DNA of 64,000 nt from positions 2,499,065 through 2,563,064 of the forward strand of contig CAJINV010000003.1 of the NCBI GenBank assembly GCA_905178155.1, read 5' to 3'. The translations under genes were made by a program, and so were the position numbers. This document shows, piece after piece, positions 17,611 to 62,300 of this stretch. The notes under the pieces are model-generated. The model was not told the DNA's origin. It saw only the letters and a list, made by a program, of their open reading frames with translations, and did no database searches. Each line of letters begins with the position of its first letter. Positions within the stretch are counted from its first letter, which is position 1. The DNA comes from Amoebophrya sp. A120 (taxonomy: Eukaryota; Protista; Dinoflagellata).

Positions 17611-20600
17611 ATGTTTGCCGGACTTTTCGGAGGAAAGGATAAGGCTTCCAAGGAAGCGCCGAAGCCGGAGGTGAATGGGAAGGGAGGCAGCCCCAAGCCG
17701 GAAGCCGCCAGCCCGAAGCCGGAGAAAGCCGCGAGTCCGAAGTCCAGTCCAAAATCTAGTCCGAAAACTGGAGCAAGCCCCAAGGCGAGCCCGAAGGCCG
17801 ATCCAAAACCGGCGCCTGAAAAAGCTGCTGACAAACCGAAAAAGAAGCTTGATATCTCCGTATTTATCTAACGATCTGGTGGAAATCGAAATGTTAATGT
17901 TTTTCATAGCAAAAAGAAAAAACATGCAAAGAATGGACCTTTGTTGATGCCGATAAAAGAAGGTCAAGAGTATAAATTCGTTGAAAAATAACGGAATTAC
18001 CCTTTGTCGTTTGAGAATGATCTCGTCCACGAGGTGTAGAATATGTTTCTACATGATTGATTTGTTGTTTCAGGGCCCACGTGTCTTCGGCGAATGGGAG
18101 GCTACCTATTTGGAGAAGCTCGGCGAGACCGTTGTTTACAATGGGGGCAAGATTCTGCAGCTGGGTTTCGCGAAAGAGTACAGACTACTACTTGCGTATC
18201 TGCATTTTTGTTGTGCTTGCACTTCTTGCTCTACTTACTTAGTCCGCTCGAGTATGAAGAATATGCACCGGGAGCAGGCTGTCTGTCGCAAATTTCGCAT
18301 GCCTTGAGGCATGCTTACTTAGTTTTTTCCTGCGGAGAGGACGATGCGCATGCGTAATCGATCCCGGTTGTTGTTTTGTGTTTGGAACGGTTTTTATCGA
18401 TGCATTTTTATGCTTCCCTACATACAGCACTTTTGGCGATTTGGCAGCGAAGCACGAGAAGGTCACGGAACATGCTATTTGGACCGATTTGTCGAAGATC
18501 GACACTTTGGAGGACGGGTCTCTGACCGGGCTAGTTTTCGAAGCCACTGCATTTCCAGTCATTGAAACGGTGGAAAAGTTCGTTCCGAAGGTAAGTACTA
18601 CTAAAGGCGTGTACTTTGTATAGTTTTATGCTGTTTAGTTCCTTTTCGTTTTCCTCGCTCATCGGCGGCACACGAGAACCGGGTGCGTGGCGCCTCATCT
18701 GTATCGCACGATGGGTAGAAGCAAGTTGTAGACCTTCACACACTTCTTGCAGATGTAATTCAGTATGTTCGCAGGCATGTTTTTTTATCCGCACATACTT
18801 ACATGGTCATGAAATAAAATTAAAATGAAATCCATAACAGTTGGCTGCAAACGCTACGGTAACGTTTGACAATCTGCGAGTTTTGGGTGAGATGAAACAA
18901 GAGTTCAAGCGGTGGGACGCCTTGTGGAAGAGAACGCAGGTAGTCATTTTTTATTCCCTGTCACGAATGCATATACTTTTACTTTTAGTTTTACGTACAC
19001 GCACTGGCACAACTCAAGCTCATGCCCTCCTGTGTGCTGCAGGATTTTTGTGCAGTAGTACCTATTCGTTGTGATTGGTTTTCGTGATGGTTTGTGATTA
19101 AAGAACAACGAGGAATATTAAGAAGGCATAAGCATGTTGATCGGCTGTGTCTACTTCCTATGGACGTCGTGCGTCAAGCGTGAAGATCGATGCTGGCTGA
19201 GCGTAGCTTATATCTCATTTTGTTTTCATTTCTCGCTTCAGGTTCCGAAGTTGCGGCAAGCGGGTCTGTTAGACCGTGGCTTTAAGCTGGTTCCCGTGAC
19301 GGTACCGGAAGAGTGCAAATACTACGAGGACAGCTACGTGATTGTGCCGCGGCTGATCAAGAAGTCGCTCCGAACCGTGAAGTTTTTCGAGATCAGCAAG
19401 TTGAACCCGGACTCCACCGCGTTTTCGCTTAAAGTGAAGGTCGTATCGGTAGCAGAGGACGGAAAGTCTTCCGTGATTGGCGACACCACGGGGACCTGCG
19501 TCTACGAAATCCACGAGTCCAACAAGGAAACCGTCACAGTGGGCGAAACTTTGGAATTGCGAAATGCAATGGTAAGTATTAGAGATTCGAGATATTTGTT
19601 TGCTTTTCACCCCATAGGACGATTAGTTGCCCGTAGTTGTTAACTTTCCTTTGTCTCACTGCAGTTCGGTGCAAGTCAACGTCATGGTCAATTATCATCG
19701 TCCCGAAAAAATAAAACAACACACGACTTTCACTTTCCTTCATTCTCTTCGCAGGTCCGCATGACAAAGGACGGACACATTCACGTGTACACGAACAAGT
19801 GGGGTAAGGTTGCAGCGGCCGACGAGAAGCTTGAGGGCGAAGTGAAGTCGGAGAACGACGTGTCAAAAGCCAAGTACGTGTTTGAGCCCCCAGCCCGGGA
19901 GAAGAAGGGTAAGGGAAAGAAGGACGAGAAAAAAACCAAATCCAAGAGCCCCGCGGGAAAGAAGGACAAGACGGAACCGAAGTCGGAGGAGAAGAGTTCC
20001 GCTGAAGACAAGAAGACTTCCAAGAAGGCAAAGGGCAAGAAGGGCAAAAAGGACAAGAAGGAAACCGCAGCGGCGGAGAAGCCCGCCGAGGAAAGCACCA
20101 CTACTTCCAAGAAGAAAAAGGGCGAAGGCAAGAAGAAAGAAAAGGAGGAAAAACCTAGTAAGGCGGCGGAGAAGACGGAGGAGAAGACGGAGGGTGCGAC
20201 GCCGAAAAAGTCCCGCAAGGACCGCAAGGCCGAAGGGAAGAAAAAAAAGAAGGAAGAAGTATCAAATGTAAAAATGTCTGGGTCTGGAAGAATGCGCGAT
20301 TTGTCATGCAGCTTTTCCATGACCCATGAGGTCTGGAATGCAGGACCTAGCATGACAGATTCTGTGCGACATCTCTCATGCGCATCCTGCATGAGAAACT
20401 GCATCTCGGTTAGGTCAAAAGTGGACAGCTTTTGGCACTCATGCAACACAGATTTTTGCATGCTTCAGATTTAGCATGACAAGTTGCATTCTTCCAGACC
20501 CAGACATTTTTACATTTGATAAGAAGCGGCTGAGTCCAAAAAGGCGGAAGAGAAGAAGAAGGTTGTAGAGGAGGAGAAGCCCGCAAAAAAGAAGGGGAAG

Positions 20601-23120
20601 GGGAAGAGCAAGGACCGTAAGAGTTCGCCCGCAGAAAAGAAGAAAGAAGTAGAGAAGCCAGCGAAAAAGGAAGAGGAGGGCAAGCGCGGAAAGAGCAAAA
20701 AAGGTACTTACTCCTATTTTTTTATGTTCGATGAACATGATTTCGTCAAATTCTAAATCTGATATACAATAGAAGAAAGAGTAGTCTTGTAGTGATGTGG
20801 TCCTCCCACCGAGAAATTGACATGAAAGCGTTGGATCCCAACTTGTTTTTGTTTAGGTAAGGGCAAGCGCAGCTCGGAGACTTCTGACGACGCGCCAGCT
20901 CGGGGACGCTCCAAGGGCAAGGGAAAGAAGGACCGATCAGACTCGCCCAAGGGAAAAGGAAAGAAAGGTAACTCGGCTATGGTTGAAAAGATCTGATGAC
21001 TTCGAACATTCTATATGTTCATGATGAACTGGTGCGACCTACAACTGGCACCAACTTTTGTGCGAAAGGAAGTCCCACCCCACTGGCAGTGAAAGTGCCC
21101 GCGCGGATTGATATGTAAGGACTAGCTAGGAATAAATGATAAAAGGTTCTTGTATTCCACCCGAAAATTTTGATACAGGGAAGAAGAGCTCCTCAAAAGA
21201 CGATTATGATGGAAGCGACAGCAAGGGCAAGAAGGGCACGAAGGGAAAGGGCAAGGGAAAGGGCAAGCGCAGCAGCTCTGATGATTCGTTGCCCGGCAAA
21301 AAGGGAAAGAAGGACGGCAAGAAGGGAAAAGGCCGCAGGTACAACAATTAGCGCGTTTGGTTAGAGTTGTTCATATTTATGTAAAGTTTTACGCTGGAGC
21401 GGAAGATTTTATGCTGCAGTGGATGAACAGGTGATCGCTCAACTCCGAAAAAGCTGCACTTGCCGCCTTGATCCCAGTATACAAAAATTGTTTATTACCT
21501 ACCATGCTGCTGTTTGTATATTTTTAGGTACAGTGACAGCGATTCCTCGCCCGATAAGGGAAAGGGCAAGAAGGGCAAGAGCATGAAGCGTGGTGGTAAG
21601 TACGATAGCGATTCGTCGGACGACGACTACCGCAAGGGCGGCAAGAAGGGCGCAAAGAAGGGAAAGCCGGTATCTTGAGGAAAAATCTCCACTCCCTATA
21701 CTGAAAATGAAAAAGAAAATTTCCGATGCAGATTTTTCGTGGCCACGACAAATCAGCTTTGTCTTCTTGCAAGGAGGTAAGTCCAGAGGTGTAGTGCTTC
21801 CACCACCATGCGAACGATTTCTCATGCTGTTTGGCCTACAGGGCGGGCGTTTGCCATGCTAAAAAAGTAAAGAGCCCACCTAACGGCGCCCCTGCTACAC
21901 AAGCTACAGTGCCTCATTGCAAGACAGAGCTCACTATACTTGTGTACTCAAATCCGGAATCCAGGTCGTTTCATTGCGAAATCACCGAGAGCTAAAGACC
22001 GGGTTGTAGGCGCTTTAGTCATGATTTTATAGTGCTTCTACAGCGACGCTCATCAGGCCTTAGAAGACTTCCTTGTTTTCAATATGGGAGGGCGGGGGAT
22101 TTTTCATTCGCATAACCGGCGTACTACGACTCCGACTCGGATTCGGACTATGGGAAGGGAAAAAAGATGAAGGGAAAGAAGGTATCCTGAGTAAAAACGT
22201 CCCCACCCCATAGTTGTCATGCAGATTTGCAGTCACAGGAAGATGTGTAATGCGCATCCCCATGAGAGGTCTTTGCATTGGTGTTTTGGACTTTGTAATG
22301 CTGTACACAGTATGAGTAAATGGATTTGTGTTGCGGCTGTACTTGCTAAACTGTACTACAATACAGAGACTGGCAAGGATAAACATCTGTCTGTGCTTCC
22401 AATGCGCTGATGGACTGTGCTCTGCCAAATAGTGAAGTAATTTGGACTGCTCCAGTTCTGGTCCCGTTGCTGTATATTGTGCTCGGGTGCTGGGTGGAAA
22501 GGTCCAACAAATATGTTGGCGTGTGTGTGTGTGAGAAGAAAAAAGTTTGGAGTGCCAGGTCCGTTGGGCCCGGGGTGGCGGCGTCTTTGGGTTGATCAAC
22601 TCACCCGAAACACAATGCCATTCCCGCAGCAGCACAGTCTGTTTATGTCATGCGTGACTCCCAAAACTTCTCGACTTGTGTTGGGAGATCCCCATCTTGA
22701 CTGTGGCGTGGGGCCGTTTTTACAAATGATAGAAGGGCGACAAGAAGGGAAAGGGCAAACCGGCCTACTACGACGATAGTTCCTTATCGCACGAAAAAAC
22801 TGTTTCACTGTAAACTTGTAATGCAGAAAATGCATCTGAGAAGTGTTTGTCTTGCTACACATGCAAGACAGTAGATTTTTAGGCGTGTTTTCCCTTAGGA
22901 AGCTCGCATGGCAAATTTTCTCTGTGATGTAGAACAAACTTGTGATGCAAAACCTGCAAAATCCTTACAGTGAAACACTTTTTTGATACGATATTCCTCC
23001 GATGACGACTACTACAAGGGCGGCAAAAAGGGTAAGGGTAGTTCTTACGGCAAGAAGGGCAAGTACGAGGAAGACTACAAGGGCAGCAGCAAGAAAGGTT
23101 CGTATGGGAAAAAGTACTAA
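17611..23120 (+). CDS. fusion protein: degenerate guanidinoacetate-methyltransferase(GAMT)/Rmt2-like domain + SSB-like OB fold + Lys/Gly/Asp-rich tail
   Basis: GT-AG introns (e.g. 17860-18073, 18178-18427) plus 4 TIR introns. Spliced text: GEWEATYLEKLGE..GGKILQLGF..TLEDGSLTGLVFE..TFDNL..RTQVPKLRQAG..VPEECKYY (GAMT-like); LNPDSTAFSLKVKVV..IGDTTG..LELRNAMVRM..VYTNKWGKV (OB fold); KGKGK/YDSDS repeats to the stop at 23120. Confidence 0.75.
20260..20521. mobile_element. TIR introner-like element, family A
   Basis: Perfect ~36-bp TIR TATCAAATGTAAAAATGTCTGGGTCTGGAAGAATGC; DR AGAAG/AGAAG; joins KKEE|AAESKK. Confidence 0.95.
21671..22114. mobile_element. TIR introner-like element, family D
   Basis: TATCTTGAGGAAAAATCTCCACTCCCTATACTGAAAA...TTTTCAATATGGGAGGGCGGGGGATTTTTCATTCGCATA; DR GCCGG/ACCGG; joins KGKP|AYYDSD. 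Confidence 0.85.
22183..22731. mobile_element. TIR introner-like element, family B (long copy, inverted relative to 12589)
   Basis: TATCCTGAGTAAAAACGTCCCCAC...GTGGGGCCGTTTTTACAAATGATA; DR GAAGG/GAAGG; joins GKK|GDKKG. Confidence 0.85.
22785..22993. mobile_element. TIR introner-like element, family C
   Basis: TATCGCACGAAAAAACTGTTTCACTGTAA...TTACAGTGAAACACTTTTTTGATACGATA; DR TTCCT/TTCCT; joins DDSS|SDDDYY. Confidence 0.9.
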
Positions 23121-25619: not shown

Positions 25620-28600
25620 ATGGAGATTGAGGAGCTACCCGAGGGTTCATTCCAGTTGATCTGGAAGAGCCACCGCGAGAGATGCAGCGACACCGCGATC
25701 GAGAAAAAGATTCCGCAGTGGCGGAAGTACTGCGAGGTACGTCTCTCCAAAACCCTCACTTCCGCAGTGCCGCTTATCTCGAAGCTGGATTTGAATTCGC
25801 AGGAGCTCGGCGATCAAGGCGCGGCGAGCTTGTTTCGATGGTATTCGTTTCTCCGAGTTCGAGTTCGACCTTGACCTTGTTTGAACTTGATGAAGTCCAG
25901 CTTTCTAACTTGTCATTGTTTTTCCTTTCGTATTTCCAGATGTTATGATCCGTAAATCTAAGTACTTAAATCACCGTGGAGGTGCCGGAACAACGTAGAA
26001 AACATTAGTTACAAATCGCTTGATATATAGATTTCATTATTCGACCCAAATTCCTTCAGGCTGTTGGAGTCCAGTATGCAGGTCGAAATCTTGTCGCTTT
26101 GGCGGAACAAAATTGGCGACTATGGTGCAATGGCTCTCGGAAACTTTATCCGACAGAGCAAGAGTTTGGTCGAGATTCACATGACGCAAAATTTCGTCGG
26201 TCTGGCAGGTTTCTGCTCGATCCTGGAATCCCTGACCAAGAATCCGCAGCTGCCCAAGGTGTGGCGTTGCTCCGACGGTCTACGCTTCGAAATATCGCCC
26301 CTGTGGATACGGCTTGGCGATAATCGAATCCCCGACCCGTTGCAAGTTATCAAAGACGAGGGAAAAATTTTTCTGCAAGTCATGGGTACAGAACTTATCT
26401 GTATTGATTTCTAAACTACACAGGATTTGATTTGACTGGTTCACAGCTAAAAAGGGTTTTGTTTCATCAAGCTCCGGTGGTGATAAGTTGAAACACTATT
26501 CACCAGCTATTTACAAGCAGGAACATAGAAAGTACGCTAAACAGTTACTCGCTCGCCGGAAGAAGCGAGCACCCGATTGATTTCTAAACTACGTTAACAT
26601 GATTTTTTTTCATTTATGAGGATGACTCAATTGCTATGCTTCGCTACGATGCATGAATTGGATTGATGCTGCCACTGCCTCACTGTCTAGGACATCAATG
26701 TCGTTTACGACGTTAATCAACTGCGTCTCCGGTCGGAGCGCAAGGAGGTTCATCGATCGCGTGACCCCGACGGTTGACAAACCACATTGATGGTTTTTGT
26801 TCAACCAGAAGTAGAGTTTTATTGCCTGCTCCTGCAACAAGAAACGATTGACCCCACTACAGGCGAAAGCGATAACGTCGACCCGTACGATTTTTTTCAA
26901 GTGTGCGAAACCAAGACGCGGGAGTCCTTGCAGAGGCGCATTGCGAGCTGCCGCGAGAAGGCCCGCAAGCCCCTGGCCACTTTCCTGTACCTGCAAACGC
27001 AACGCCCAGTGGGACATTTGGCAGCCGCCCCGCCTTGTGCGCGGTTGTTGGAGCGTGTCGGCAAATTTCCGCAACCGGCAGACGCAAAAGTGGCATGGGA
27101 AACGTATCAAGGGGGTTCCACCTGCTCATCTTCCACCGCCGTCACGGTGACTGCCGGGCGCGGTCTACATCTTCAAGGTGGCAGCTCCTCTGCCGCCTTG
27201 GTCTCATCTTCTTCTCGATCCGGCACCGTCATGGCCGCTAGTTGGGGTGACCAGCAGGGACTCACCTTGTCTGGCTGTGAAACGACCTCCGGGTCTAGTA
27301 CCATTGGGCCGTCGAGCGTTGCAAACAACAAAGCCTCGTTATGAGAGTGCACAAGAACTCCCCCCCCTGCCCCTCGTTTGAAAAGCATGAGCAGCAACGC
27401 AAGCAAGAGCGGCAATTGTGCTTCCCCATGACAAAGAAAGTTGCACACGGATAGTTGTGAAAATACTTTTTGAGGTACCACGACCCAGAGTTTGTCTAAA
27501 GGTCAAGTTAAATGCAAAACGTGGAGGCGGTAATATTTTGCATATGATATTACAAATGAGGAGGAGGGTGAGTTGTGTTGAATTCTCATACTTGTCTGCC
27601 ATGTCGGTTCGCGACCACGCATGGGAGACCAAGGCATCTTGGCGCCGCACCCCGGCTACCACAGAGCAGTCCTCCTCGTCGTCCTCGAGCAGTAGCGCTG
27701 GCGCCGGTGTTCTTGGTAGCGGAACGTCCTCTGCCGCAGCTCCTGGTACGACCACGGAGCGCTCCAGAAACGTCAACGCTGCGGAGTCTGAAGTTTCGGA
27801 GAAACCCGCGATTGGTACTACTATAGTAGTATTTATTTCAACTTACTCCTGAAGTATTTTTTCAGTATTTACATGTATTTTCTTTGCAAAAAATGCAGAT
27901 CCACTCTCACTTCTGCGACTGAAGGCTGGGCTTGCACTGCAAATATTTCCACCGTTCAAAAACAGAAAAAGAAAATAGATGTAGATCAGTATGATGACAC
28001 ACACAAAGACCAACCAGCTAAAAATGTGAAGAACTCTGCAACTACACAGTTCGCCCGAAGATTTTTCGGCGGACGCAACCGACGCACACTGCGCGCTTCT
28101 GCACGTTGTTGGCGACGCCTAGCAAGCAGTCTTCTGCGGCAGGAGGTCTAGCTCCGTCCTCGGGTGGGGGCGGTCTTGGGAGCGGGAACAACAAGGCATC
28201 CTCCACCACGGAGGACCGAGAGTCCAAGCGAGCAGGAGGCAATCATGCTCAACATCAGCCCGATCATCAACATAACCAGCACGCTGGAGGAGCTACAGGA
28301 GGCGCAGCCGGTACTGCAACTACAACGTCTCGTCGCGTCCGAGTTGTTCGCGAGGTCGACGAAGAGGGGTTCGAAAGGGTGCAGCCCCGCGGTGGGTGGC
28401 GAAGCCTCAAAGCGCCCTCTGCGGCGGCGGCTTTCGTGCAGGAAAAGCTGAAGATGAAAGCCGGAAATCAAGAAGATTCAAGTCGTGAAGCTTCCACCTC
28501 TGGTGCTGCGGCCGACGCGTTTCTGCTACTTATGCGATACAAAGAACTACACGCAAGCAGAAGCAACTGCTGTGCGCGGGGAGTCTTGAATTGCTCCCGA

Positions 28601-31600: not shown

Positions 31601-34585
31601 GCCGTTCCAGGGACGGCCCAGCCAATGTTTCCCCCAGGAGACCAGCCGCAGCAGGTAGCGCCCCCAAACATGCCCCCGCCAACTCTTCCCCCGGTGCAGA
31701 CGACAACGGCGTTGTCTTCCACGAACACCTCCACTGCCAACACGCCACTGCATACGAGTTCTGTAATGAACCCCACGTCTGTGGTATCGGTGCCGCTTAA
31801 TATTATTAACGGGGGCGTGACCACCAGTACACCGGCGACCGTGGCGCAACTTCCGACTGGAAACAGCAACCCGGGGTCTTTGGTCTTCAACGCTGCGGCG
31901 GTGGGCACAACTTCCTGCTTCACGCTGAAGGCTCAGCATTTCGTTCCGTCGAACGGCGCTGCGGTGGGTGGGGTAGGAGCTGCAGCCACGACGGGCAACC
32001 TGGTAGCAGGAACTCCGGGAACCGCCAGCACGCCGGCTCACGTGGTCCATGTTAATACCGCGTCGACCCCTAATGCAGTGCTGGGCATGACGAGCGAAAC
32101 CTTTTTGTCGCAACAAATCGCAACCGCGCAACAGCAGCAGCAACAGCAGCAACGCAATGCCGCGAACCTGACATCAACAGCTGGCGCTGGTTGTACACCT
32201 GGTGGTGCTGGAGCCCCTTCTTCCGGAGCAGGTGTCGGGGTTGTTCCAAATCAACAGCCACTCGCCTCATGCGGTACCTCTTCTACCGACGCTGGGTCAG
32301 CATCCGCCACGGCAGGTGGTGGAGTTCCTGTGGGGTCGTCGACCTCGACCACGACGTCCCAGAATATTAACACGCCTGCTCTCGTCGGAGCCGGTGTTGT
32401 AGTGCCGAACTACAACCAGTACAATCCGTTTGTAAACAACAGCGCCAGCAACACGACAGCCGCTTCGCTCGTGACCTCCTCGAGCAACACAACCACCACG
32501 TCTACGGGCGCCGGCAGTTGTAGTGGTCAACCGTCTCAGCAGCTGCGAGTCGACTACAACCAGTACATTTCGACGGGGGCATATGAGAATGCACAGTTGG
32601 TCCCCCCGCCTCTCATATGAACAAAGGCATGAACTACAACAGCAATAGAAGAAGACGCACCAGGAAATTAAGTAAGTACATAGTACAGGCTGCGCATGAC
32701 AACGACAAGCTCCCGCGCAGACTGTAGCGCCGTCTGGCCTTCCGGAATTTATTGTCATGCAAACAATGCCAAAGCGCAGGTCAGACTCAGATGCAGAATC
32801 TGGATTTGGTATACCTAGGTGTAATGAGGAAGAGCAGGGGATATTGTGCACTCTCATAGTGCACCTTCCGCTGGCGGAGCACCTGCTGCAACCTACGGGC
32901 AGTTGAGCCATTTCGGGGCCAACAACATGCAACCGCTGCAGATGCCCAATTTGGTACAACATCAACTGAGCAGCCAACAGATGATGCAGTTGAATGGTAT
33001 GAATTCTTACGGGAATGTGGTCGGCGTCGGCAACAACCTGTTGTCCACGTACAATAACAACGGTGGTGTCGAACAACAGCAGAATCAGATGAGCCTGAGC
33101 ATGACCAATACGTCGGGCGGGGCCGGGGGAGGGCACCAGCCCCAGCAAGTGCACCAGCACCCGACCAATCTTCAGAATGAACTACCTCAGCAAATAAACG
33201 TCGGAGGCTCGGGAGGTGGCGGGGGTTCCACCTTCAATTTTAGTAGTGCCAGAAACGCGACCGAGTGGGTCCCTGGAGTACATAGCGGAACGACCACTGG
33301 TGTTCCTGGCGTAGTATCTTCCAGCACTGGAGGAGGACAACAAGTACAAGCGTTTGGCCATCTGACTACGCAGCCGCAGCAGCACGACCAAAATACTACT
33401 ATCCTGTACAGCAGTGGGGCGCAGCTGCAGCACCAGCCGCAGCACCAGTTGATGAACAGTACTGGTCAGCTGCAACAAAACTCCTGTTATTCACAGCAGC
33501 AGCACAACAACATGAGCATGGTGAACACGAGCTGCTCCAACCAAGTCCAGATGGTGCCACAACTACAACCCTATGTTGCTGCCGGGTCAGCACACAACTC
33601 CTCGCAACAGCATCGCGAACAACTGCATCAGCCGTATGGAACAACAACGCATGTCGGGCAGGCCTCGCACGTGATCGTGGGCGGGACGAATATTCTGACA
33701 GCGTCGATGAATCAACATCCCTCGTTTCTTATCAACGGTGGTGGACAAGGACAACATCAGAACGTTGCGCAGCAGCCTTACCGCGAGAATGTGAGCGGAA
33801 AAAATGGGATGCTGTTGACGACTGCTGACAACTGTTACACAACGCAAATGCCACTTAATAACGCGAGTGGGTCTTGTTCTGGAGCGACGCCGATGAACAC
33901 GAATCAGAAATGGCAGAACAACCGAGGAACTACGGACCAGCGATCGAACAAGCACCAGCAACGCTATAATTCGAGCAATAACAGCAGGTATGGCGGAAGC
34001 AGCTGCAATAACACCAACACGATGAACACGAGCGGCAACCGCGGTCACCAAAATTCCTGCGCGAACAACTACGTCCAGGATGAGAATATGCCACCATCGG
34101 ATAATTTTTTCCAGAATAGCAGCTACAACAACTACAACAACCAGCAGCAGCATCAGCCGCCGCCGCGCCCATCCGAAACGAATCGGCCACTGATTCTGAA
34201 CAAAAACAGTGGGATGAATGTGATGAAGCACAGCACGATGACCACGCCGATGTCGTCTGCGAGCCCGATAGCGGAACAGAGTCCGTCTGATAGCGCCGGG
34301 GAGCAGCATCAAGCGCCCCCCCGGGAACAAGATGGTACTAGCGTCCTCCTTCCGCAAAACAAGCACGTTGTACACATGTCCAGTAGTGGCACTAAGGAGA
34401 AAATTCAGCGCAAGAGGAAGAAGGCGCGGGCGCTGCCACCGCAAAATGTGGTATCAAAGGGAAGCAGTGGTGCATCCAGTAAGATCCTCGGAACCACAGA
34501 TGAACTTGCAATCATCTCCTGTGGAGTGGTGCTACTGTGCTTTCTTTGCTATGTGTGTCTCTGTGTGGTCTGTCTCGTCGCGTGA
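25620..34585 (+). CDS. RNI-like leucine-rich-repeat protein with a very long S/T/Q/N-rich low-complexity C-terminal region (possibly more than one gene)
   Basis: LRR motifs LDLNSQELGDQGAASL, LSLWRNKIGDYGAMALG, IHMTQNFVGLAG, IRLGDNRI in 25620-26400. Co-oriented ORFs 26787, 27601, 28106, 29948 and 32846 follow. Joins only partly resolved. Confidence 0.55.
28491..29842. repeat. 1.3-kb GC-rich segment bounded by a 29-bp direct repeat
   Basis: CTTCCACCTCTGGTGCTGCGGC(C/A)GACGCG at 28491-28519 and 29814-29842; internal short repeats; perfect 20-bp hairpin at 29726-29769. Confidence 0.75.
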
Positions 34586-47600: not shown

Positions 47601-48883
47601 GTGCATGACAAATCCCGAACTCATCCAGACCCAGACACTTTTGCAGTTGATACAGGCACTGTACCCCGATCGAACCGGCGGGCCCGCCGCCTCCTCCGCG
47701 TTGAAGGAATGCCGGGGGCACCACCTGAACCACCGCGGGTTTTCCCTCGGCATGTATCAAAAAATGCAAATGTGCCCTCTGGGTCTGGAAGATTGAAACT
47801 TGTGATGCTGTCTTTGGATTCCACATGAAATCTGTGTTGCATGAACTGCAAAAGGGGTCCAGTTTTCGCTACGCGGAGAGGGAAGTTCTCATGCTGTATG
47901 GGCATCAGAAAGCATTTACAAAATCAGTGATGCTAGAGCCTGCATCACAGACATCAGGGGTCATGCAAAATATGCATGACAGACGTTCTTGCATTTTTCC
48001 AGACCAAGACATATTTGCAATGCATAGCGTGGCCATCATGGACACGAACTACAACTGTTCCACGCTGCCGGACGTCCCCTTCGTGTCCGTCAGCGAGCCG
48101 TGTCTGGTGGACCTACGCGTGCTGCGAAACGAACTCCTACTACCCGACTCTCTGGCTATGCGACAGTTCTTTGCGGCTGTTCTTGAAGGAGATCCTGTGC
48201 GACCGCCGGCGGCAGCAATAGAGCAGGGAGTGCTCCAGGTGGGCGGCAGCAGCAGAGGAGTGTACCGCCTGGAGAGTACGACGATAGATGACACGACGTC
48301 GCAAGAGAGAAATTCCGATGTGAACACGATCCTCTTTGAAGAGAACATCAAATTACAGGACCAAACAATTATGTCGAGCGACGCTGCGGAAGAGTCCGAA
48401 TTTCTACAAGAAGAGAACGAAGAAGATGCGAAAAGAACGGAGGAAGATAGTAAAGCTGAGTCGAGGCAGTCGCGCGTGCAATCTGGAAAATCCATGACGG
48501 ATGATGCTGCAAACTCTGTACTATCCGGAGGAAGAGCAGCTGCTGGAGTCTTTCACGTCCAAGAGCAAAATGGGCGTCCAGTTGTAGCGGGAATGGGAGA
48601 CAAAGTGCAACTGAAGCTGCGGAGCGGGAGCTGTGATACAATGCGCGAAAACCTGCGCCTACTATACCAGCTCTGCTACTTCGAACTGTGGACGACAGAA
48701 AGTGCGCTTCTGCGCCGGTTGATTGGTACTGTCGTGGTGAAGATTGTGCCGGAAAAATCTTCCGAACACTTGCAACTGCTACACGCTGATCATAGGCATT
48801 CAACGTACATCGGTGATTTTTTTGTCTCTATCGTGGAAATAGACTACATAAAAACGCGATTGAATTATGCACAATATTATTAG
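41671..48883 (+). CDS. large protein with a LicD/fukutin-like nucleotidyltransferase-fold domain, split by 9 TIR introns (termini uncertain)
   Basis: Reconstructed: ...LLHLMRGVHELCEAFRFPYLLSSGTLLGAIRHHSL|IPWTGDAEVSLDYSYFGFV|LNVALL...QMY|ARRPLSLKFF...YRFPYLDIHP...LQ|ALYP. GTLLGAxRH..IPW is the LicD signature. Confidence 0.8.
42203..42415. mobile_element. TIR introner-like element, family E
   Basis: TATCCAAGAAAAAAACTGTGT...ACACAGTTTTTTTCTTGCATA; DR GTGGA/GTGGA; joins FAWW|KDRFDC. Confidence 0.9.
42733..43051. mobile_element. degenerate family A element
   Basis: TATCAAACGC..AAAAAATGGCTGGGTCTGGAAGAATG...TTCTGACCCAG..CATTTGCAATGTATA; DR CCAGG(42722-26)/CCAAG(43052-56) with a 6-nt spacer on the left. 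Confidence 0.65.
44046..44308. mobile_element. TIR introner-like element, family A
   Basis: DR CGCTG/CACTG; joins WYPL|QTRIDG. Confidence 0.9.
44350..44679. mobile_element. TIR introner-like element, family D
   Basis: TATCGAAGGGAAAAATCCCCCCTCCCCA...TGGGGAGGGGGAATTGTTCATTTCGATA; DR CGGAC/CGGAC; joins SVTD|NGNFLR. Confidence 0.9.
46048..46312. mobile_element. TIR introner-like element, family A (inverted relative to 20260)
   Basis: DR CTTGA/CTTGA; splits the LicD motif RHHSL|IPW. Confidence 0.92.
46374..46635. mobile_element. TIR introner-like element, family A
   Basis: DR TCGTC/TCGTC; joins FGFV|LNVALL. Confidence 0.92.
46945..47105. mobile_element. TIR introner-like element, family F (shortest, 161 bp)
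   Basis: TATGCATCGCAAAAAGTAT...ATACTTTTGCACAGGATA; DR GTATG/GTACG; joins QMY|ARRPL. Confidence 0.8.
47367..47652. mobile_element. TIR introner-like element, family A
   Basis: DR CAGGC/CAGGC; joins FVLQ|ALYPDR. Confidence 0.92.
47755..48026. mobile_element. TIR introner-like element, family A
   Basis: DR GCATG/GCGTG; joins FSLGM|AIMDTNY. Confidence 0.85.
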
Positions 48884-49785: not shown

Positions 49786-52700
49786 ATGAAAGCGTTTTTC
49801 GGATCTTCTTCCTCAGCTGCCTCGCGCAGCAAGGGCGGCTCCTTGGAGAAATCGGAGGAGCTGATGCCCTTCCAGAAGACGTTGCTGCACAACACTGGCG
49901 GGTCAGAAGACAGATTCAGTAAATTTGTCACGAAAAGCAGTCACGAGGCTTCCGGCGCTGCGGCCAACAGCTCCTCCTCCATCCTTGCTGCCCGCAGAAA
50001 TTCGCAAGACGCGTTTGCAGTAAAAACGATTGCTGCTTGTTTTTTTTTTTTTTGTATGAGATCCGCTATAAACCATAAGCAAAGAGAAGTAGTGCAGATC
50101 CTAGTGTTCAAGGAGGATTAAGATAGGTCTCTGCTCATCTCCTCCTCCGCCGCGGTTCAATGTGATCAACATGCGTCTTCGGGACTTGTCCGACATCAAT
50201 GCGGGGCCATCCGCAATGATGTTTTAGCAAGCCGAGGCTCCTCATCCTCGTACGTAGGTACGTAATCGCTCCACCCCGTCACGCTTGGGAAGACACAGCC
50301 AGGGTGCGCACGATCTTGCTACGCGAAGAAAGCGGGCACCCAAGAGACTGATTTTGTCTTCGACTCCATTAGCCTCTGCTATGTCTTGGCGGCTGTGTCA
50401 CTGTACCTGTCTCCTTGTGCCCTGTCGCCCTGTGCCCTGTTCTAGTGGCGCTATACTTATGCAGCATCCTTGCTGCCCGCAGAAATTCGCAAGACGCTTT
50501 TGCAGTAACGATTGTTGCTTGTTTTTGTTACCTCCATCCTTGCTGCCCGCAGAAATTCGTTCTGAAGTTAAATCCGCATTACAAATTTTCTTTCTCATTC
50601 TGAGGAAATTTGTCATGCGATTAGTACTAGTACGATACTTTTGCAATGCATAATACCGCACGTTTTCCTGTCTCTCCCGGATATTTTCCCTGCGCTCGCG
50701 CCGCCGATCTTGCTCTTGCTTGGATCGTATCACCTGCAGAAATGTCTGGGTTTGGAAACTTGTGATGCTACAATGTGGATGATGGGAAGAGTTCCGAATG
50801 CAACCCAGCATGATAACTTTCCAGAACGCTTTTTCATAGGCAAATCGCATGAGAAATCGCGTTTTGGCATGTACAAAAGAGGTTGCGACTTTTGTTGCTT
50901 ATGCAATACAGATTTTCTAGGAAGGGAAAGCTAGCATTACAAGTTCCAACCTCCCAGACCCAGACATTTTTGCAATCCATAGATCGCGCTAGTTCGTTTC
51001 GCGCGACCTGCTGCACTAGGGTTTCTTGTTTTGTACTATGGTGGGGAAAAATCCCCCCTCCCCATACTGAGGAGGTATGTTCTACAAATTTGTGATGCTG
51101 ATTTGTGACCAGAAATCCTGTCTCTCTTGCAAGAGGGCAAACGCAGAGAGTGCGCCGCTTTATGCAGGCAATTTGTAATGCTGTTGCGCCGATATGGCAG
51201 GCCTCTGCTATGCTAAGGACCTACAGCAAAACACCCCTACGCAGGTTTAGGCCTTGCCTGCCGTGCGCCCCCCTGCAAGACAGAGCTGATTTGTGTACAC
51301 AAATCCAGCAACAGAAATTTCCGTTTCAATATGGGCGGCAAGGGGGATTTTTCACTTTGATATGTACGTGGACCAATAAATCTGGTTGCGTCATCCTTGC
51401 TGCCCGCAGAAATTCGCAAGACGCGTCTGCAGTAACGATTGTTTGAAGCTTCTAGGTGTTGCCTATTCTGCATGACAAACTGCGTTTCTGCATGTAACGA
51501 TTGCTGCTTGTTTTTGTTACGTATCATCGATTCCTGATTTCATTTTATCCGATTCGTCAGGTGGCTTGGGGCCGTTTTATTTTCTCTTGCAAACTACCAG
51601 GTCTGGGTCTGGCGACCATGATCCGCCAGAACGTTTAGCGCAGCGCTGGTAGAAATTAATATGTGATGCATCATGTTCATCAGGATGTAGATGTACTAGG
51701 AAAATTTGAATTACACTTTGTGCAGGCCAAGGACCAGACAATATTGGTATTCGACTGGGACGATACGCTTTTCCCGACTTCCTGGGTCCGACACTACATG
51801 AATCTATCATACTACACAAGAGTGCTATTGTAGTGCGAGATTTCTCGATTACACTACAAGAAACATGCATAATATTTATTTTTATGGTATAGACAAGCCC
51901 CCCCGCAATCAACCTCGCTGTGTCAACATACAGCTCGGTCGACTTGGAGGCATTTGTGATGCGCAGCAAAAAAGGAAGAGAGACGGAGATCGCATAGGTA
52001 GAGCTTTTTTCTTTCCAGCAACACAAAACTCAATACACAGGCACAGTTGTAGTTGAAAAGTATCTATAACTCTATCTTATGTTACGGGTACATGCCAATA
52101 CTGCAATAGCGCCTTACTGCATGATAAGACCTGCATTGGAAATATCCCCTGGCGGAGCAGCGTATCTCGGCCATTCAGAAGCGAAAAATCAAAGTCGCCC
52201 TCGACGAACTCGCAAACGAAGTTGATATGGGGGTGTCAGGATTGAAATCGTCAAAGTTGAAATGATTTGTCATGCATAAAATGCGATACAAAAAGTGACT
52301 CTATTGCAGAGGACACATGGAAGGCAGATTATAGTCCTGGTAAGGGTCAAAAGTTGGACTGCCGACTAGCATGACAGAGGGCAGCTCTTTTGCCCTAAAC
52401 CGCATGACAGACTCGCTTCCAGCACCGGGAAAATTTGTCATGCGCCGACTACAAACTTTAGGTCTAACTGGTATACGTTTTATGGTGAGGCGCCCTTACA
52501 GGTTGTGTAGTGCTAGTGGTTTCGGTCGGTTTAGCATGACAAACTATTTCAACTTTGACGATTTCAAACCTGACACATCCATAGTTGAGCAGTTTCTGTT
52601 AGCGGCGATGCAGCGCGGTCGCGTCGTCATTGTACTCGAATTTTCGATATTTGAAATCACAAAAAGAAAGAAGATGAGAAATTTTATTTGATGTCACCTG

Positions 52701-54033
52701 TGCCAAAAATAATTGCTCTCTGTCTTGATGCTAGGGTGTAAGAGAAAAGAGACTAATTCACTGTGAATTTTATTAACGAAAAAAGGTAACGTTAGCGCGC
52801 GTGCCGTGGGTTCGACTATCGTGCGACAACTTTTTTCCGAAGGTTGGAAAGCTTCTGCAGGAACAGAACATCAAGATCGTCTACGCGCAGGAGTTGATCC
52901 ACGGAGACGCCGAATTGAGCAACCAGATTCCGTATTTTTTCTCTGTTTTTGAGTGATTGTGGAACTGGTACGTAGCGACATTGTTTTTCTTCTCGATTGG
53001 TTCAACAGGTTAAGGTATTAAACAAGCTGCCGATTGTTCTTGGTGCCATAGCCATTCGCAGCAAAATGAAATACTGATGAAGATGACGCAGCCACAGCAT
53101 AGACATGAAAATGTAGAAGAGCTGCCGTGTGGCTGTTTCGTTCCTTCTTCTTTTTCTTCTTCAAGCGGAGGATGTTCGCACGAAATAGAAACAACCGAAC
53201 CACAAATCTTTCACTTCGTCTTTCTAGGTCGGACGCCGCGGGTCAAGAGCGGTACTGGACAGCGAAGAAGCAACTAGCGATTCAGCGGGAAGTCTATGAA
53301 ACTGAAAAACGCCCCCTGCCCAACAGATAAATCGCTAACCATTTAAGTAAATCAAATAAGACTGTGACATGAAGCCATTTTCTCAAAGCGTGACGGAACG
53401 CGACGGAATTCCGTAAGATATACCGGCTTACCCTCTCGTCGCTTAGCGCCGGCGCCCCAGACATCGCTGATGTGATGGACGGCTGCCACCTTTACTGCTA
53501 CCCTACGCATTTTTACGAAAGAGAGCATTTTTTGCCCACCGGCTCTGTGCGTAGAAAATGGCAGTGATAGGGTACTACTACTTACTGTGCCGTTGTGAGA
53601 CGCTAATCGTCGATGTCAGGGAGGCCTTTTTCAGGATGATAAACGGGAGTTTTTTTACAGCCAGTACCCCGGGCAGTCGTGGAAGAACGTGATCAGCATC
53701 GGGGATTCGGACTTCGAACGAAAGGCGACCCAGCTGACCATGCAGGAATACAGTGTGGGGTTGTCTGACGGCGCGTTGCGGACCAGCCAGAGCCGCGGGG
53801 AGGAGGACCAGATGTGCATGAGCGGGTTCGTGGGCAACCACTACCGCCGGCTGCGCACCAAAACCGTGAAAATGTACGACTCCCCCCGCATCAAAGACCT
53901 GGAGCTGGAGATTCAGCTGCTGAAAAAGTGGCTCACTGCCCTGGTGCAGCTGGATTCCGGCCTCGACGTCGATCTGGAGGACGATGAGCGCCTCGCGGAA
54001 ACCCACCGGCTGCTGACCGGGGAAATTTTGTGA
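49786..54033 (+). CDS. HAD-superfamily protein of the alveolate/stramenopile DWDDT type
   Basis: Reconstructed: AKDQTILVFDWDDTLFPTSWVRHYMN|LHWKYPL..ANEV|EQFLLAAMQRGRVVI|VTLARVPWVRLSCDNFFPKV..YWTAKKQLAIQREV|EFFYSQYPGQSWKNVISIGDSDFER..RLRTKTVKMYDSP. N-terminal exons (49786-51720) are uncertain. Confidence 0.8.
50458..50652. mobile_element. family F element with a rearranged left arm
   Basis: Right end is the reverse complement of the 46945 left end; DR ATACT/ATACC; left TIR is replaced by the local repeat after TATGCAGC. Confidence 0.6.
50728..50981. mobile_element. TIR element, family A
   Basis: TATCACCTGCAGAAATGTCTGGGTTTGG...CCAGACCCAGACATTTTTGCAATCCATA; DR GATCG/GATCG. Confidence 0.9.
51037..51362. 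mobile_element. TIR element, family D
   Basis: TATGGTGGGGAAAAATCCCCCCTCCCCATA...GGGGGATTTTTCACTTTGATA; DR TGTAC/TGTAC. Confidence 0.88.
51805..52126. mobile_element. degenerate TIR intron (singleton family)
   Basis: TATCAT..GCTATTGTAGT...ACTGCAATAGC..ATGATA; DR decayed (GAATC/AGACC), but +5 removal restores the HAD frame. Confidence 0.6.
52226..52583. mobile_element. TIR introner-like element, singleton family with ~50-bp TIR
   Basis: TATGG..TGTCAGGATTGAAATCGTCAAAGTTGAAAT..TTTGTCATGC...GCATGACAAACTATTTCAACTTTGACGATTTCAAACCTGACACATCCATA; DR GTTGA/GTTGA. Confidence 0.92.
53295..53641. mobile_element. degenerate TIR intron (singleton family)
   Basis: TATGAAACTGAAAAACGCCCCCTG...CAGGGAGGCCTTTTTCAGGATGATA; DR decayed (AAGTC/AACGG); +5 removal gives QREV|EFFYSQY. 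Confidence 0.7.
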
Positions 54034-55899: not shown

Positions 55900-58475
55900 A
55901 GAATCAGAACCATTGCAGACATGAATCTGTGCTCAGAGAACTGAGTGAAAAAGCATGGTTCGTAGAAGAGAAGCGGGACGACAAAGCATGCCAAGATCTG
56001 TATGCCGAGATGAGTGAAGAGCAACTGGCTGGACAAAAAATCACCACCTGGTGTGACTTTTTTCCGCGAGTAAGAAGCTAAGTAAACCGTTCGTTGCTGT
56101 TAGCCTCACAAACGTCAAGGCGCGCGCTCATCCTGATCCTGACGAAGTTGCATATGCATAAGCTGCAGAATGCGCTAGTTGGGGTATTGTCAGTACGCGT
56201 TCAACGTCTTCGCCTCTGAAAAGCTCAGCATCTGATGCACACGCACAATTTGCGCATTGGGAGTACTTGCCGTCCCGCTATTAATGTGCACCACGATACC
56301 GATACGATTTAGAAAGAAATATCCTGGTATTGCGATGAATAGTTACTTTTCATACTAAACTACAGTCTGCTGCATATATTTCGCCCGGTATAATTTTTCT
56401 ACAACAGGTACACTCGTGGCGGCGTTGGATGGAAACACACAGCGTCGCGATGTGCAAGTGACCGCAGCCGGTTTATCCAAAGTTGAGGGTGGAGGTGATC
56501 CCGATGCACGCGAGGATGCAGAGGCGGAGCACACGGATGAAACCCCCGACGCTCACACAAGCACACACACACACACACACAGAGGGTAGTATAGATCTGG
56601 TCTTTATGTTCTTCATCATCTTCTTGTGTGTGAAAGACCGTGATACCACAGCAATCGTCACTTATACTCTCAGACAAAACTCGAGAATGCCTTTCGAAGA
56701 GTTGTGACGATGCACCTGCAAGAATTTCTCACTCTGTTTCCAACCCCGCTACAACACTTCACAGGCAGAAAAAGGGACGCCTAGTTCATCATCGCAGGCG
56801 GCGTCTTTCGTGCAGGAGAAACAGAAGGAGTTCGAGGTGGCGGCGCGAGACGAGATCACCACGTTTACCACGAATAGCCCACTCTCCGAAGACTACGTTC
56901 TGTACCTCCAGAACACGCAAGCGGCGAGAATGTTGGGCGGGCGCATCAAAAGCGGGCTGAACTTGACGACGACGCAGTGGGACAACGTCGAAAAGAACGC
57001 GCTGCTGTTCCCAATAGACATTCTTCCCCCAGTCTATGCGGTGCAGTTACTGCGCACCTACGTCGTTCTCGACAAGGACGCGTCCAACACGCTATCCAGG
57101 CGCGAGGTGGAAAGCACGGCTGTTTTGTTTTGCCCCTTGGTGCCGTGGACGACGGACTCGACCGGAAGAGTGTTATCGGCCGCAAATGTGTCTGTGTGGT
57201 CTCTGGAATAAAAGTGCTAGACTTTTTTTGTCGTGCTTCGCTAGCATCACTTTTGAGTTTCGGCGTGGTTGCATTCTGAAGCGCTGTTTGTCAGCCGGCA
57301 ACTCTAAAACGTCTCATTTTTGGCCGTTGATTCATAATATAATATTGACGCGCCCGTGTTTTCGTGATTCTTCACCCTGCAGCATCACACGTCTCCAGAA
57401 CCAGACATATTTGCAATGCATATGACGATCATGGCAGCAACGTTTTGTACCTGTTCGACATTTCCGGCCTCTTTGTGCTCTCGTTTACGGACTACGCGTG
57501 TTTCTGTAGCAAAATTTCCGCCTGCAGTGAACCGCTACACAGGAGCTCCCTCTTGCAGTACCACGAGGAGGAACGCCGGTTGGTGTCACATGATGGTGGT
57601 TCTTCTGGTGCGGTCCGACTCTCTGAAGCGGAGTCCTCGAACTCCTTCCTCGAGGTAAAATTTGTCACCGATCTGATGTTGCCTTTGTCTTTGTGTTCTT
57701 TGTTGTAATTTTGAGGCCAAGTTATATGAATATGATTTACTTCATGTTGATATAAAAAAAAGGTGAAATTTGTCTTGGGTTCCCTCCTCGTGGCCTACAA
57801 GTTCTATGAACTGGCGCAGGCCCTTCTCGCAGCTCTTCACACTGTGCACACGGTTGTGCACACGGCGCATGCGGCTGGCCACGCTGCCCATGCGTATGTT
57901 CATTTTCCCCACCCTCCGTCTAAAGGCCTGAAGACTGCATGCGAAAAGCTCGTCAAAGTAGTGCACCAAATGAGAGACGCAGTCGACGGAACCACAATTC
58001 ACACAATTGTACATGAGACACAATACATGTTCAAGAAGCTTGACAGCTGGGCGGGAATCAAACACGTCGTGGAGAAAATCTTTAGCCTCCTCGACATCAA
58101 AGCACAGGCTCAGTCGCGCCAAAACATCGAGGCGAGCATCGGAAACATGGAACACGACATCAAGGAGGCAGAGGAAATTTACAACCACTACCTCCATCTT
58201 CACCAGCACGGAAAGCACATGAACTCGGGGAAAGAGAAAGAGGCGCTAAAAAAATGGATAACGCATCTCACTGGATATGAATGGACTGGCAAAGGCAAAA
58301 CTACTGGCCTAGCCCAGAGGAAGAATTGAATTGGTTAATTGCCGAAGAGGAGAAGGAGCATACCAAAGTTTACAATTCTTTGCAAGTTTCACATCGCGCA
58401 TATGACGAATCGCCGGCCGATTTCACACGTAGCCTCAAAAAAAAACTCGGGCTGCGTCGACAAGAAGGTGGTTGA
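55900..58475 (+). CDS. multi-exon hypothetical protein with an EF-hand-like loop and a His-rich region
   Basis: ORFs 56810..57211 (LDKDASNTLSRREV), 57364..57708 and 57763..58329. The first two join across a degenerate TIR element. Termini uncertain. Confidence 0.45.
57174..57422. mobile_element. degenerate family A element
   Basis: TATCGGCCGCAAATGTGTCTG..GGTCTCTGGA...TCCAGAACCAGACATATTTGCAATGCATA; DR lost (AGTGT/TGACG), but +5 removal links ORF 56810 to ORF 57364 in frame. Confidence 0.65.
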
Positions 58476-59376: not shown

Positions 59377-62300
59377 ATGCCGGAGGACAGCTCTGCCGCG
59401 GGGGCCGAGGTCCTCGGCGACCTGGATCAAGCGAGCGCCGGGTCGCCGCTGGGCAAGCGGTCGGTGGTAGATATGGTGAACCTGGCCCAGCCTAATACGC
59501 TGGGGAAGGACCAGGCTCTCCTGAACGAGGACGGGGAAGCAGGGACCGAAAATGCGCAGGACGGCGGCATCAACGACGGGGCCATGGCCGTGGAGATGTG
59601 GTATTGGAACACCGCGTATCAAATGTAAAAATGTCTGGGTCTGGAAGAATGCAGATTTTTGTCATGCTGTTTTTGCATGACGCAAAATGTCTGTCATGGA
59701 AGCTCTAGCATCACAGATTTCGAGAAGCTTCCGCATTGCTTAATCCGCATGACAAATCCCCCATTTTGGTGACAGGAAATGGGCGCCTTTTGCTGCCTAT
59801 GCATGAGAGATGTGTCTGTGTTGTGAAATGCGCATCACAAGTTCGCATCCTTCCAGACCCAGACATTTTTGCATTTGATACTGCGAACGAGTTCAAGTCC
59901 GAGGTGATGTTTTGCAACCCGGTGGACAGTATCCACTGCAAAAATGTCTTGGTCTGGAAGATTCTGAGACTTGTCATGCACGTTTTGCATGAGCCATGAT
60001 GTCTGTGATGGATGCCCTAGCGTCACAGATCTTTTGCGGGCTTCTTGATGCCTATTCCGCATGACAAATGCCCTCTCCGCGTAGCAAAAACTACATTGCC
60101 TTTGCTGCTCATGCAATACAGATTTTTTCTGGAATCCAAATGCAGCGTCACAGGTTGTGGATGTAGTCTTCCGGACCCGGACATATTTGTATTTGATAGG
60201 CAGCGATACACCGAAGCTGATCATCCCCCTGGAGGTGTTCGACAAGATGAAGAAGGTGTACAACGAGAAAACGCGGCTGCTGCACTCGCGGAAGAACCAG
60301 TTTGACGAACTTTTGACGCTGTTCCGCACTGTATCGTACGAAAAAAGTGTTTCACTGTAAGGATTTTGCAAGCTTTGCATCACATGTTTGTTCTAGTACA
60401 CCAAAGAGAAAATTTGCCATGCGAGATTCCGAAGGGAAAACACAGCCAAAAATCCACTGTCTTGCATGTGTAGCAAGACAAACACTTCTCAGATACATTT
60501 TCTGCATTACAAGTCTCCAGTGAAGCAGTTTTTTTTTGCGATACACCATGCGCCGGCAGTACTACCACGACCTGCAGGGCTTGCGGGATCTCCTGAAGAC
60601 CGCACGGGAAGCGCAGGAGCTCCGGTACTTAACCTATTTCTACCGTAGGAACAGATACTTGAAACCTGACGCGAGGCATGACGGGTTGTGATTGAATCAA
60701 AAATGTCGCATCAAGAACATCCTCCAACGAATGGAGAAAAAGAAATTGTAATTGAACAAATGTATGTGGATGTGGTGAAGTATAATTAGAGTGTATAATC
60801 CATTCTGGGAAGGAGTTTATTTGTTGAACCTGCAACTGTATATGACCTTGATTTCTGTTCGTCGCACAACATACAGAGAAAACGGCGGGTACTTGGACCC
60901 GCGAAAGCAGGCGCGGATGGCGCGCATGGAATCGGTCGTGATGAACCGGGAGGTGCACTACTTTAATGTTTTGGACGTGGTGGACCCCGAGTTCAAGGAG
61001 ATCTTGATCGCGGAGTGCCGGCAGTTTCACAAGGAGCTCATCCTCGAGAACGCGGCCTTGGCGGACCAGTTGGCGGCGCTGGGGATCGGGACGCTAACGC
61101 TCGAGGAAAAACTGCGCATGTTCATCGCGGAATTCGAACTCAGCGAGATTGTCAACCAGTTAGCGAAATTCGCCCCGGGTGACACGGCGCCGCAGTCGGT
61201 GCGCCGCCGGTACCTGTATCCAAGAAAAAAACTGTGCTAGTGTCACCTTCTTTGGATGACAGCATCACAAATTTGCTCTACGTGACAGAGAAAACCTGTC
61301 ATGCGAGGCTCGTAAGGGAAAACAGACATGAAAAAAGAACTTCATGGCTGCCTGACATGACAGGTGTAACTCTGTTGCATGTTCTGCATTACAGAGTTAC
61401 ACCTACAGAGTTTTTTTCTTGCATAACCTGCTGTCGCTCTTCAACGCCGCCGGTATTGAAGAGCAGTTCGCAGACGAAATCATCGCAAAGTAAGATTATT
61501 ACGCTCGCACTCGCTCATCTTCTACTTTGCGGTCTTTACAGAGACGGATCCATATTTAACTTCTGGTTTCATCGCTTCGTTTGACTAATCTATGTGGTTT
61601 TCTTGAAGATTATGCGAACTTTGTTCTCAGCGCAAAGTAGCCAGGAGAATATTTGAAATAAACAATTCCGGAGAAGGACTGAATCGACCAAAAGAAATTT
61701 GTCTTTGGCAGGTACATTGATAAGACTGCTGGGTCTGACGCTCCGAAGGACCCAACGGAATCCGAAGAATACAAGTCCTTGAAAGAGAAATACGACGAAC
61801 TCGACGAACGCCGCGGGGACTTGATGGCCGAACTGGATGACTTGCGGGCACAGGTGTCCGAAATCTCCGACATTAAGGACGCGGAGATGAGTATCCAAGA
61901 AAAATAAAACTGTGTTAGTGCAGGTGTCTTCTACTTCAGGGGACAGCGTTACAAATTCGTTCTGCATATGGCAGGAAAAGTCTGTCATGCGCAGCTAGGA
62001 CGCGAAAATCAAAACACGTAATATGAAAACAGCGCGATATGGCTGGCCAGCATGACATTGTGTAAAATTCTTTGCGTTTTTTTTTATCTGCATCACACAC
62101 ACACACAGTTTTTTTCTTGCATAATGAGCGACCTGCGTATGGAGTGCGACCGACTGCGGTCCGAGGCCCTGTCCGCGCAGGCCGCCGTGCCCACGGAGCC
62201 CCAGGTGCCGGCCGCCGAGCTTGCGGCGCTGCAGGCCGAGCTGGCCGCGGCAAAATCGGATCTGGACGCGGCGCGCGCCGAAGTGGTCGCCAAGGACGCG

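Follow-up and report, generated by a model that had tools for sequence, protein, structure and literature searches.

Introner elements in both orientations

The introner elements of Amoebophrya sp. A120 are removed from messenger RNA in either orientation, and the cut likely falls at the same place in both, one base before the TAT with which an element starts and four bases after the ATA with which it ends. We have analysed a stretch of 64,000 nt from this genome (the window, in whose numbering all element coordinates are given; elements are called here by their first position), which contains at least 35 inserts of 161-549 nt with a TAT start, an ATA end, inverted arms of ca. 20-30 nt and a flanking 5-nt direct repeat. 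These are the introner elements already published for A120, a known system with 29,850 copies reported among the non-canonical introns (PMC7789003). They share with that account the organism, the end pattern (an inverted repeat of TAT, 7 nt and AAA), the direct repeat of 3-5 nt at the borders, the hairpin and, being repeated, the removal at non-GT-AG transcript junctions, there supported by RNA-seq. When an element is removed together with 5 nt, the + strand reading frame is restored in 29 of the 35 catalogued cases; among the remaining six, 57174 is removed in RNA-like contigs (see below), three are nested in a canonical intron, and 13739 and 16173 belong to neither group.

The arms have A at a frequency of 0.88-0.95 at element positions 11-13 of the logo, in which TAT itself was a search condition. 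Within an element, the arms frequently disagree at positions 4-10, where certain variants recur (TATCAAAT, TATGGATT and TATGCATT), while the TAT and the A-run are fixed. The family A arm had no match in viral contigs.

All 17 coordinates named in a preliminary description of this DNA are starts of TAT[C/G]...ATA elements with inverted arms and a 5-nt direct repeat. Its claim that family members occur as reverse complements of each other held for 14 of the 15 named pairs, which scored 136-222 on the opposite strand and 16-30 on the same one (local alignment on both strands after trimming 40 nt of each arm; the maximum among 600 shuffled pairs was 28). The trimmed core of the pair 20260-46048 reached 222 on the opposite strand vs. 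19 on the same; 39186, 44046 and 59930 against 46374, 47367 and 47755 gave 136-212 vs. 16-30 in all nine combinations; and 59617 scored 203 vs. 22 with 12941 and 206 vs. 23 with 63083. The B pair 12589-22183 (152 vs. 19) and the C pair 22785-60332 (198 vs. 17) behaved alike. Families A, B and C occur in both orientations, with six family A copies one way and seven the opposite way in the window. The claim failed for the F pair 46945-50458, which had no match on the trimmed core (19 opposite, 15 same) and aligns over ca. 88 columns at one end only (62 opposite, 32 same). Since 50458 is nested in the GT-AG intron 50020-51725, it has no demonstrated intron function of its own, and the pair, alike only in part, was discarded as proof of such a function.

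A wider tally came from a pattern scan of one other, near-identical assembly (168 loci; 12 of 64 parts scanned), in which the protein of one tested gene was 97-100% identical to that of A120. The scan yielded 320 unique elements and, on a shuffled control of 174 kb, one false call; an exact 5-nt repeat, which was part of the score, flanked 250 of the 320 and an exact 6-nt repeat none. A host strand could be called for 233 elements (the other 87 were left out of the orientation tally, as were 75 of the 233 that had no family), and the calls agreed in 215 of the 224 pairs within a locus; in the window itself one call was wrong. Judged from sequence alone, the orientation of family A relative to the host was 50:67 (p=0.14), or 33:46 with stricter strand calls, close to the even split that the preliminary description had named as support for symmetry. 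The other families gave 8:6 (B), 6:6 (C), 3:4 (D) and 4:3 (G). Among the 233 elements the three length phases were used equally (82, 74 and 77).

Removal from messenger RNA

The transcript evidence comes from four RNA-like contig sets (X3-X6) of one sample, for which "RNA" is a tool's guess backed by skipped GT-AG introns. At all 11 visible junctions the element plus 5 nt was skipped. Ten of these joints lie within 38500-48900 (39186, 39865, 42733, 44046, 44350, 46048, 46374, 46945, 47367 and 47755), where the eleventh element, 42203, has no joint among those listed, which is not counted against its removal; the other is that of 57174 (joint 57172-57427). No letters were left between the joined pieces (X3 record 3, where 33 nt correspond to 44311-44343; X5 record 15, with 56 + 100 nt), and five consecutive elements were missing from one contig. 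The removal of 51805, 52226 and 53295 is supported by an exact 428-nt sum of the predicted exons; for 12589, 12941, 20260, 22183, 22785, 59617, 59930, 60332 and 63083 the reading frame is the sole witness. The listed joints do not extend to 59-64 kb, which likewise says nothing against removal there. Family A was skipped both forward (39186, 44046) and reverse (46048, 46374, 47367, 47755), all of these except 39186 within one gene, which confirms that the same element works as an intron in both orientations, as had been proposed.

Removal is from the messenger RNA and not from the DNA, because 57174 and the GT-AG intron 57655-57762 are missing from the same contig, whereas unbroken contigs of the DNA run X1 keep 53295, 57174, 46945, 61892 and 63421 at the depth of their flanks, 41-44 (X1 is possibly the source of the assembly, and its joints were taken from the part of the table that is listed). 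Ciliate internal eliminated sequences (IES) are removed from DNA and leave one TA behind. The resemblance to such excision before transcription, suggested earlier, has the inverted ends with TA at each terminus and the independence of orientation in its favour. Against it stand these X1 contigs of single-copy depth, the element-less contigs that are also free of GT-AG introns and leave the intergenic bins 41276-41622 and 58675-59341 uncovered, and the junctions, where no TA is left. We therefore regard excision from DNA as highly improbable, although a rare excised form might occur beyond the joints listed for X1, and have rejected an identity with ciliate IES.

Reverse-transcriptase template switches are favoured by a strong hairpin together with a direct repeat, a known recipe for artefacts, and all our junctions come from cDNA-like contigs in whose runs element sequence is abundant. 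It could thus be argued that the polymerase jumped across the hairpin between the short direct repeats and that the elements are not truly spliced. We give this very little credence: 57174 and 53295 are joined without any shared letter, 195 of 233 elements would, if retained, close all three frames with stops, conserved proteins continue across the junctions, and one contig would have to jump five successive elements. In a raw-read run from another sample (X9), 120 reads fell on element sequence and none on the exons of the window; those at 46046-46130 represent an unspliced family A end, 90-95% alike, with foreign flanks.

The cut register

A perfect duplication hides the position of the cut; mismatched duplications bound it. 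With the register expressed as the intron start relative to TAT, 44046 permits -3 to 0, 42733 and 47755 permit -2 to 0, 46945 permits -1 or 0, and 57174 permits only -1, as does 53295, from the restart of the transcript at 53646 and the exact sum of the exons. The one register common to all 11 junctions is -1/+4, so that the intron would read N-TAT[C/G]...ATA-NNNN, with terminal dinucleotides that include TT..AC, CT..CG, GT..CT and AT..TG.

In Table S4 of Farhat et al., T is the second letter of each of the nine top non-canonical motifs of A120, and the 3' ends vary (PMC7789003); this agrees with the -1/+4 register, though preferences of the aligner may contribute. The legends of the same paper describe the border position as variable or unknown. 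In the text passages searched in PMC7789003 and its supplement, PMC12130899, PMC9860276 and PMC11282704, nothing is said about which way round A120 introners sit or about a register common to them, and those of PMC13326754, PMC12005148 and PMC13149111 add nothing on orientation.

Signals at the ends and the splicing machinery

The information for removal very likely lies in the symmetric ends, because both orientations are removed, orientation is nearly even, and the strand-specific core has no YTRAY at a shared place in either orientation. The preliminary description had placed it there and was right in this. Its further step, from symmetry to a non-spliceosomal mechanism, does not hold: turned round, an inverted repeat still has the same sequence at its 5' end and the same at its 3' end, so that symmetry is compatible with the spliceosome, and spliceosomal introners working both ways have been reported.

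We consider it somewhat probable that a relaxed spliceosome reads the inverted ends and removes the element with one copy of the 5-base duplication from the mRNA. A cut-and-paste transposase blind to strand would insert the elements; TAT would supply U+2 and A+3 of the A120 donor, GTA, with G+1 dispensable; the paired arms would bring the ends of the element together; and the 3' cut would be set by the distance from ATA rather than by an AG, possibly with a branch A at -7 or -5. With both signals contained in the inverted repeat, flipping the element would change nothing.

Several observations are in line with such a relaxed spliceosome. The canonical donor is GTA in 21 of 21 window introns examined (picked by reading frame) and in four of four at L052, a locus of the second assembly; with the cut at -1, the elements have TA at +2/+3 as these 25 donors do, that is, the U+2 and A+3 of a U2-type donor as found in A120. 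In the 3' arm, the counterpart of the A-run in the 5' arm is a T-run, which lies 14-18 nt upstream of the 3' cut. There is a slight excess of G at +1 (84/233, background 0.30, p=0.037) and of AG at the 3' end (20/182, background 0.07, p=0.043), both uncorrected. A120 is reported to retain nearly all spliceosomal proteins and U2, U4, U5 and U6, while U1 was not found (PMC7789003).

Other facts weigh against a spliceosomal removal. The elements have neither the G+1 nor the terminal AG of U2-type introns; GT..AG is possible in no register at any of the 11 junctions (GC..AG at one), and in the second assembly GT..AG and GC..AG account for 14 and 2 of 182. The candidate branch A at -7 would lie inside the arm and very near the cut, and only 73 of 117 family A copies have a YTRAY there. 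Only two elements, 57174 and 53295, fix the register, neither of them with an assignable orientation; the family A copies bound it without fixing it, to -3..0 (forward) and -2..0 (reverse). The transcript contigs come from a single sample, and a tool has guessed their RNA nature. TAT and ATA may be kept solely for the transposase, in which case the match to GTA would be a coincidence. Finally, cuts at -1/+4 have two-fold symmetry, centred on the middle base of the duplication, as would also be expected of a dimeric nuclease.

In a possible, though in our judgement less than probable, alternative, an endonuclease and a ligase, independent of the spliceosome and akin to those of tRNA splicing, would measure their cuts, at set distances, from the base of the RNA stem that the inverted ends form. 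They would need neither AG nor G+1, the geometry of their cut would be two-fold symmetric, and the absence of a branch motif from the core would be natural. Pairing of the family A arms is predicted for either orientation, with 23.6-32.5 expected pairs in all six copies folded. U1 was not detected in A120 (PMC7789003), and a like mechanism has been proposed for the non-conventional introns of euglenids (PMC3935182, PMC11282704). On the other hand, cutting is exact at 53295, for which folding predicts no long-range stem (1.6 expected pairs), and at copies with unpaired ends (terminal pairs are not predicted at 46048, 47755 and 57174), which favours the end sequence over a stem ruler. Nor is there a sign of selection on an RNA-level stem: on the sense strand G-U mismatches do not exceed A-C (185 vs. 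178; per element 67 vs. 65; at anchored arm positions 43 vs. 34, p=0.36). A subset of rare variants with 32 vs. 17 (p=0.044) was not counted, its alignment being poor and C>T outnumbering G>A 12 to 2. The cut also coincides with the GTA donor pattern, and the junction rules of euglenids do not apply (see below). That A120 has a second, spliceosome-independent splicing pathway that recognises the TAT/ATA stem end, cuts at -1/+4 and removes tens of thousands of copies seems to us unlikely, if well short of negligible.

Comparison with known introns and transposons

What we add to the account of A120 introners in the text of PMC7789003 is that they sit both ways round, that 250 of 320 have a 5-nt duplication and that one register fits all junctions. 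Introners with terminal inverted repeats inserted both ways are known from Polarella glacialis (classes 6, 8, 10, 2, 7 and 3) and Aureococcus anophagefferens (bioRxiv 10.1101/2020.10.14.339549). Like them, the A120 elements are introns in either orientation, derived from DNA transposons, and lose one target duplication at splicing. As described there, the Polarella and Aureococcus introners show an orientation bias and carry or recruit GT/GC/GA and AG, shifting frame to find them; the A120 elements need neither, as the junction counts above indicate, and are oriented ca. 50:50 in one register.

Euglenid non-conventional introns, which are reportedly set free as circles without a lariat, also have a stem-loop joining the ends (predicted here, and weak or absent in 53295), direct repeats, no GT-AG and an offset between stem and cut. 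As far as the accounts of them go, each of their junctions is pyrimidine|purine, and a CA at +4,+5 pairs with a TG at -7,-6 (PMC3935182, PMC11282704). In contrast, CA at +4,+5 is found in 0 of 233 A120 elements and all four pyrimidine|purine positions in 54 of 233, the stem starts at +2/-5, and the 3' arm has a T-rich tract. The likeness to euglenid introns drawn in the preliminary description therefore fails at the level of the junction, and we have rejected that identity.

The TA..TA termini and inverted repeats recall the IS3EU/GingerRoot DNA transposons, whose duplication is usually 6 bp (PMC10045372), against 5 in the A120 elements; membership was rejected for this reason. No transposase was seen with the A120 elements, no search of long copies having been made. 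The introns of Fritillaria, which resemble miniature inverted-repeat transposable elements, are likewise transposon-derived, with inverted repeats and duplications, and are reportedly removed by a modified spliceosome; they have defined AG-AC/AG-AT ends and a TAC target (PMC11282704), and the A120 elements show no such target preference.

Host genes and other features

The elements and their host genes are collected in Table 1. The protein of the CobW gene is continuous with its homologues across both introner junctions and groups with CobW proteins of A25 and A120. It is only 69% identical to the named A120 CobW, and among the matches listed there was no identical protein of at least 348 aa; the gene is therefore taken as a paralogue, possibly mis-annotated. 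The gene at 41672-48734 had a LicD match that was weak and below the cut-off. The protein rebuilt from 49786-54033 is 100% identical to Amoebophrya sp. A120 protein P0121, and its DWDDT motif is, we presume, HAD-like. Besides its three nested elements, the large GT-AG intron 50020-51725 of this gene contains the end of the upstream exon in several copies.

The elements 21671-22114 and 22183-22731 are longer than their relatives and contain unrelated internal sequence; the lysine-rich frame is restored when they are removed. At 10283-10697 there is a GT..AG intron with a 5' end like a decayed family A arm, whose removal restores the frame; it is possibly an introner turned into a canonical intron. 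In the four canonical introns at L052, each border has sliding repeats about AG|GT. The stretches 28640-29800 and 35760-36990 are long and non-coding in appearance, with G/C runs and internal repeats, unlike introners, and are possibly other transposons inside introns.

Table 1. Introner elements and host genes of the window ("skip", nt missing at the joint; "runs", RNA-like runs with the joint).
Feature	Position	Orientation	Observations
Introner B	12589..12867	+ forward	Repeat TTTAC/TTTAC; frame restored
Introner A	12941..13192	- reverse	Repeat GGAAA/GGAAA; frame
Element	13739..13928		4/5 repeat
Introner A	16173..16423	- reverse	
Introner A	20260..20521	+ forward	AGAAG/AGAAG; lysine-rich gene; frame
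Element, weakly family D	21671..22114		444 nt; GCCGG/ACCGG
Introner B	22183..22731	- reverse	549 nt, longer than partner; alignment, frame
Introner C	22785..22993	+ forward	Alignment, frame
Element	27340..27590		One copy in window; frame restored on +
Element	32582..32858		One copy in window; frame restored on +
Host gene, CobW-family GTPase	38586..40365	+	PF02492, PF07683 (Pfam); two introners
Introner A	39186..39447	+ forward	Removed with 5 nt, skip 267, 3/4 runs
B-like element	39865..40124	- reverse (weak score, 52)	Skip 265, 4/4 runs
Host gene	41672..48734	+	Ca. 1548 codons without stop after removing 9 introners of both orientations
C-like element	42203..42415	- reverse	No RNA joint among those listed
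Decayed A-like element	42733..43051		Skip 324, 2/4 runs
Introner A	44046..44308	+ forward	Skip 268, 3/4 runs
Introner D	44350..44679	+	Skip 335, 1/4 runs
Introner A	46048..46312	- reverse	Skip 270, 3/4 runs
Introner A	46374..46635	- reverse	Skip 267, 4/4 runs
Introner F	46945..47105	+	Skip 166, 2/4 runs; registers -1/+4 or 0/+5 only
Introner A	47367..47652	- reverse	Skip 291, 3/4 runs
Introner A	47755..48026	- reverse	Insertion in 5' arm; skip 277, 2/4 runs
Host gene, DWDDT motif	49786..54033	+	Protein rebuilt from coordinates
Partly F-like element	50458..50652		Nested in GT-AG intron 50020-51725
Introner A	50728..50981	+ forward	Nested in same intron
Introner D	51037..51362	+	Nested in same intron
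Element	51805..52126		Decayed repeat; fits 428-nt exon sum
Family G element	52226..52583		Fits 428-nt exon sum
Decayed element	53295..53641		AAGTC/AACGG; transcript resumes 53646; register -1/+4 (CT..CG)
Decayed element	57174..57422		AGTGT/TGACG; joint 57172-57427; register -1/+4 only (TT..AC)
Host gene	59378..63906	+	Open for 615 codons once 7 introners and 3 GT-AG introns are taken out
Introner A	59617..59880	+ forward	Alignment, frame
Introner A	59930..60198	+ forward	Alignment, frame
Introner C	60332..60543	- reverse	90% to 22785; alignment, frame
C-like element	61217..61425	- reverse	Alignment, frame
C-like element, decayed	61892..62123		Frame
Introner A	63083..63358	- reverse	Alignment, frame
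Element	63421..63765		One copy in window; frame

Significance

The elements are published and introners working both ways are known elsewhere, hence this is not a new system. What is added here is the orientation-free -1/+4 rule, N-TAT...ATA-NNNN, which is absent from the literature searched. Ca. 65% of A120 introns are reported to be removed without GT-AG, by a mechanism that the published passages leave as an open question. Under a single rule, splice sites that now count as "diverse", tens of thousands of them, would form one class. It also predicts where the chemistry of branching or cutting should take place, so that the choice between spliceosome and nuclease could be decided with existing RNA data. 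If a spliceosome-independent pathway were true, any insertion into an exon, in either orientation and any phase, would be silent. The rule would also explain the invasion of the genome by these elements, for which a harmless insertion would require neither a target sequence nor an orientation.

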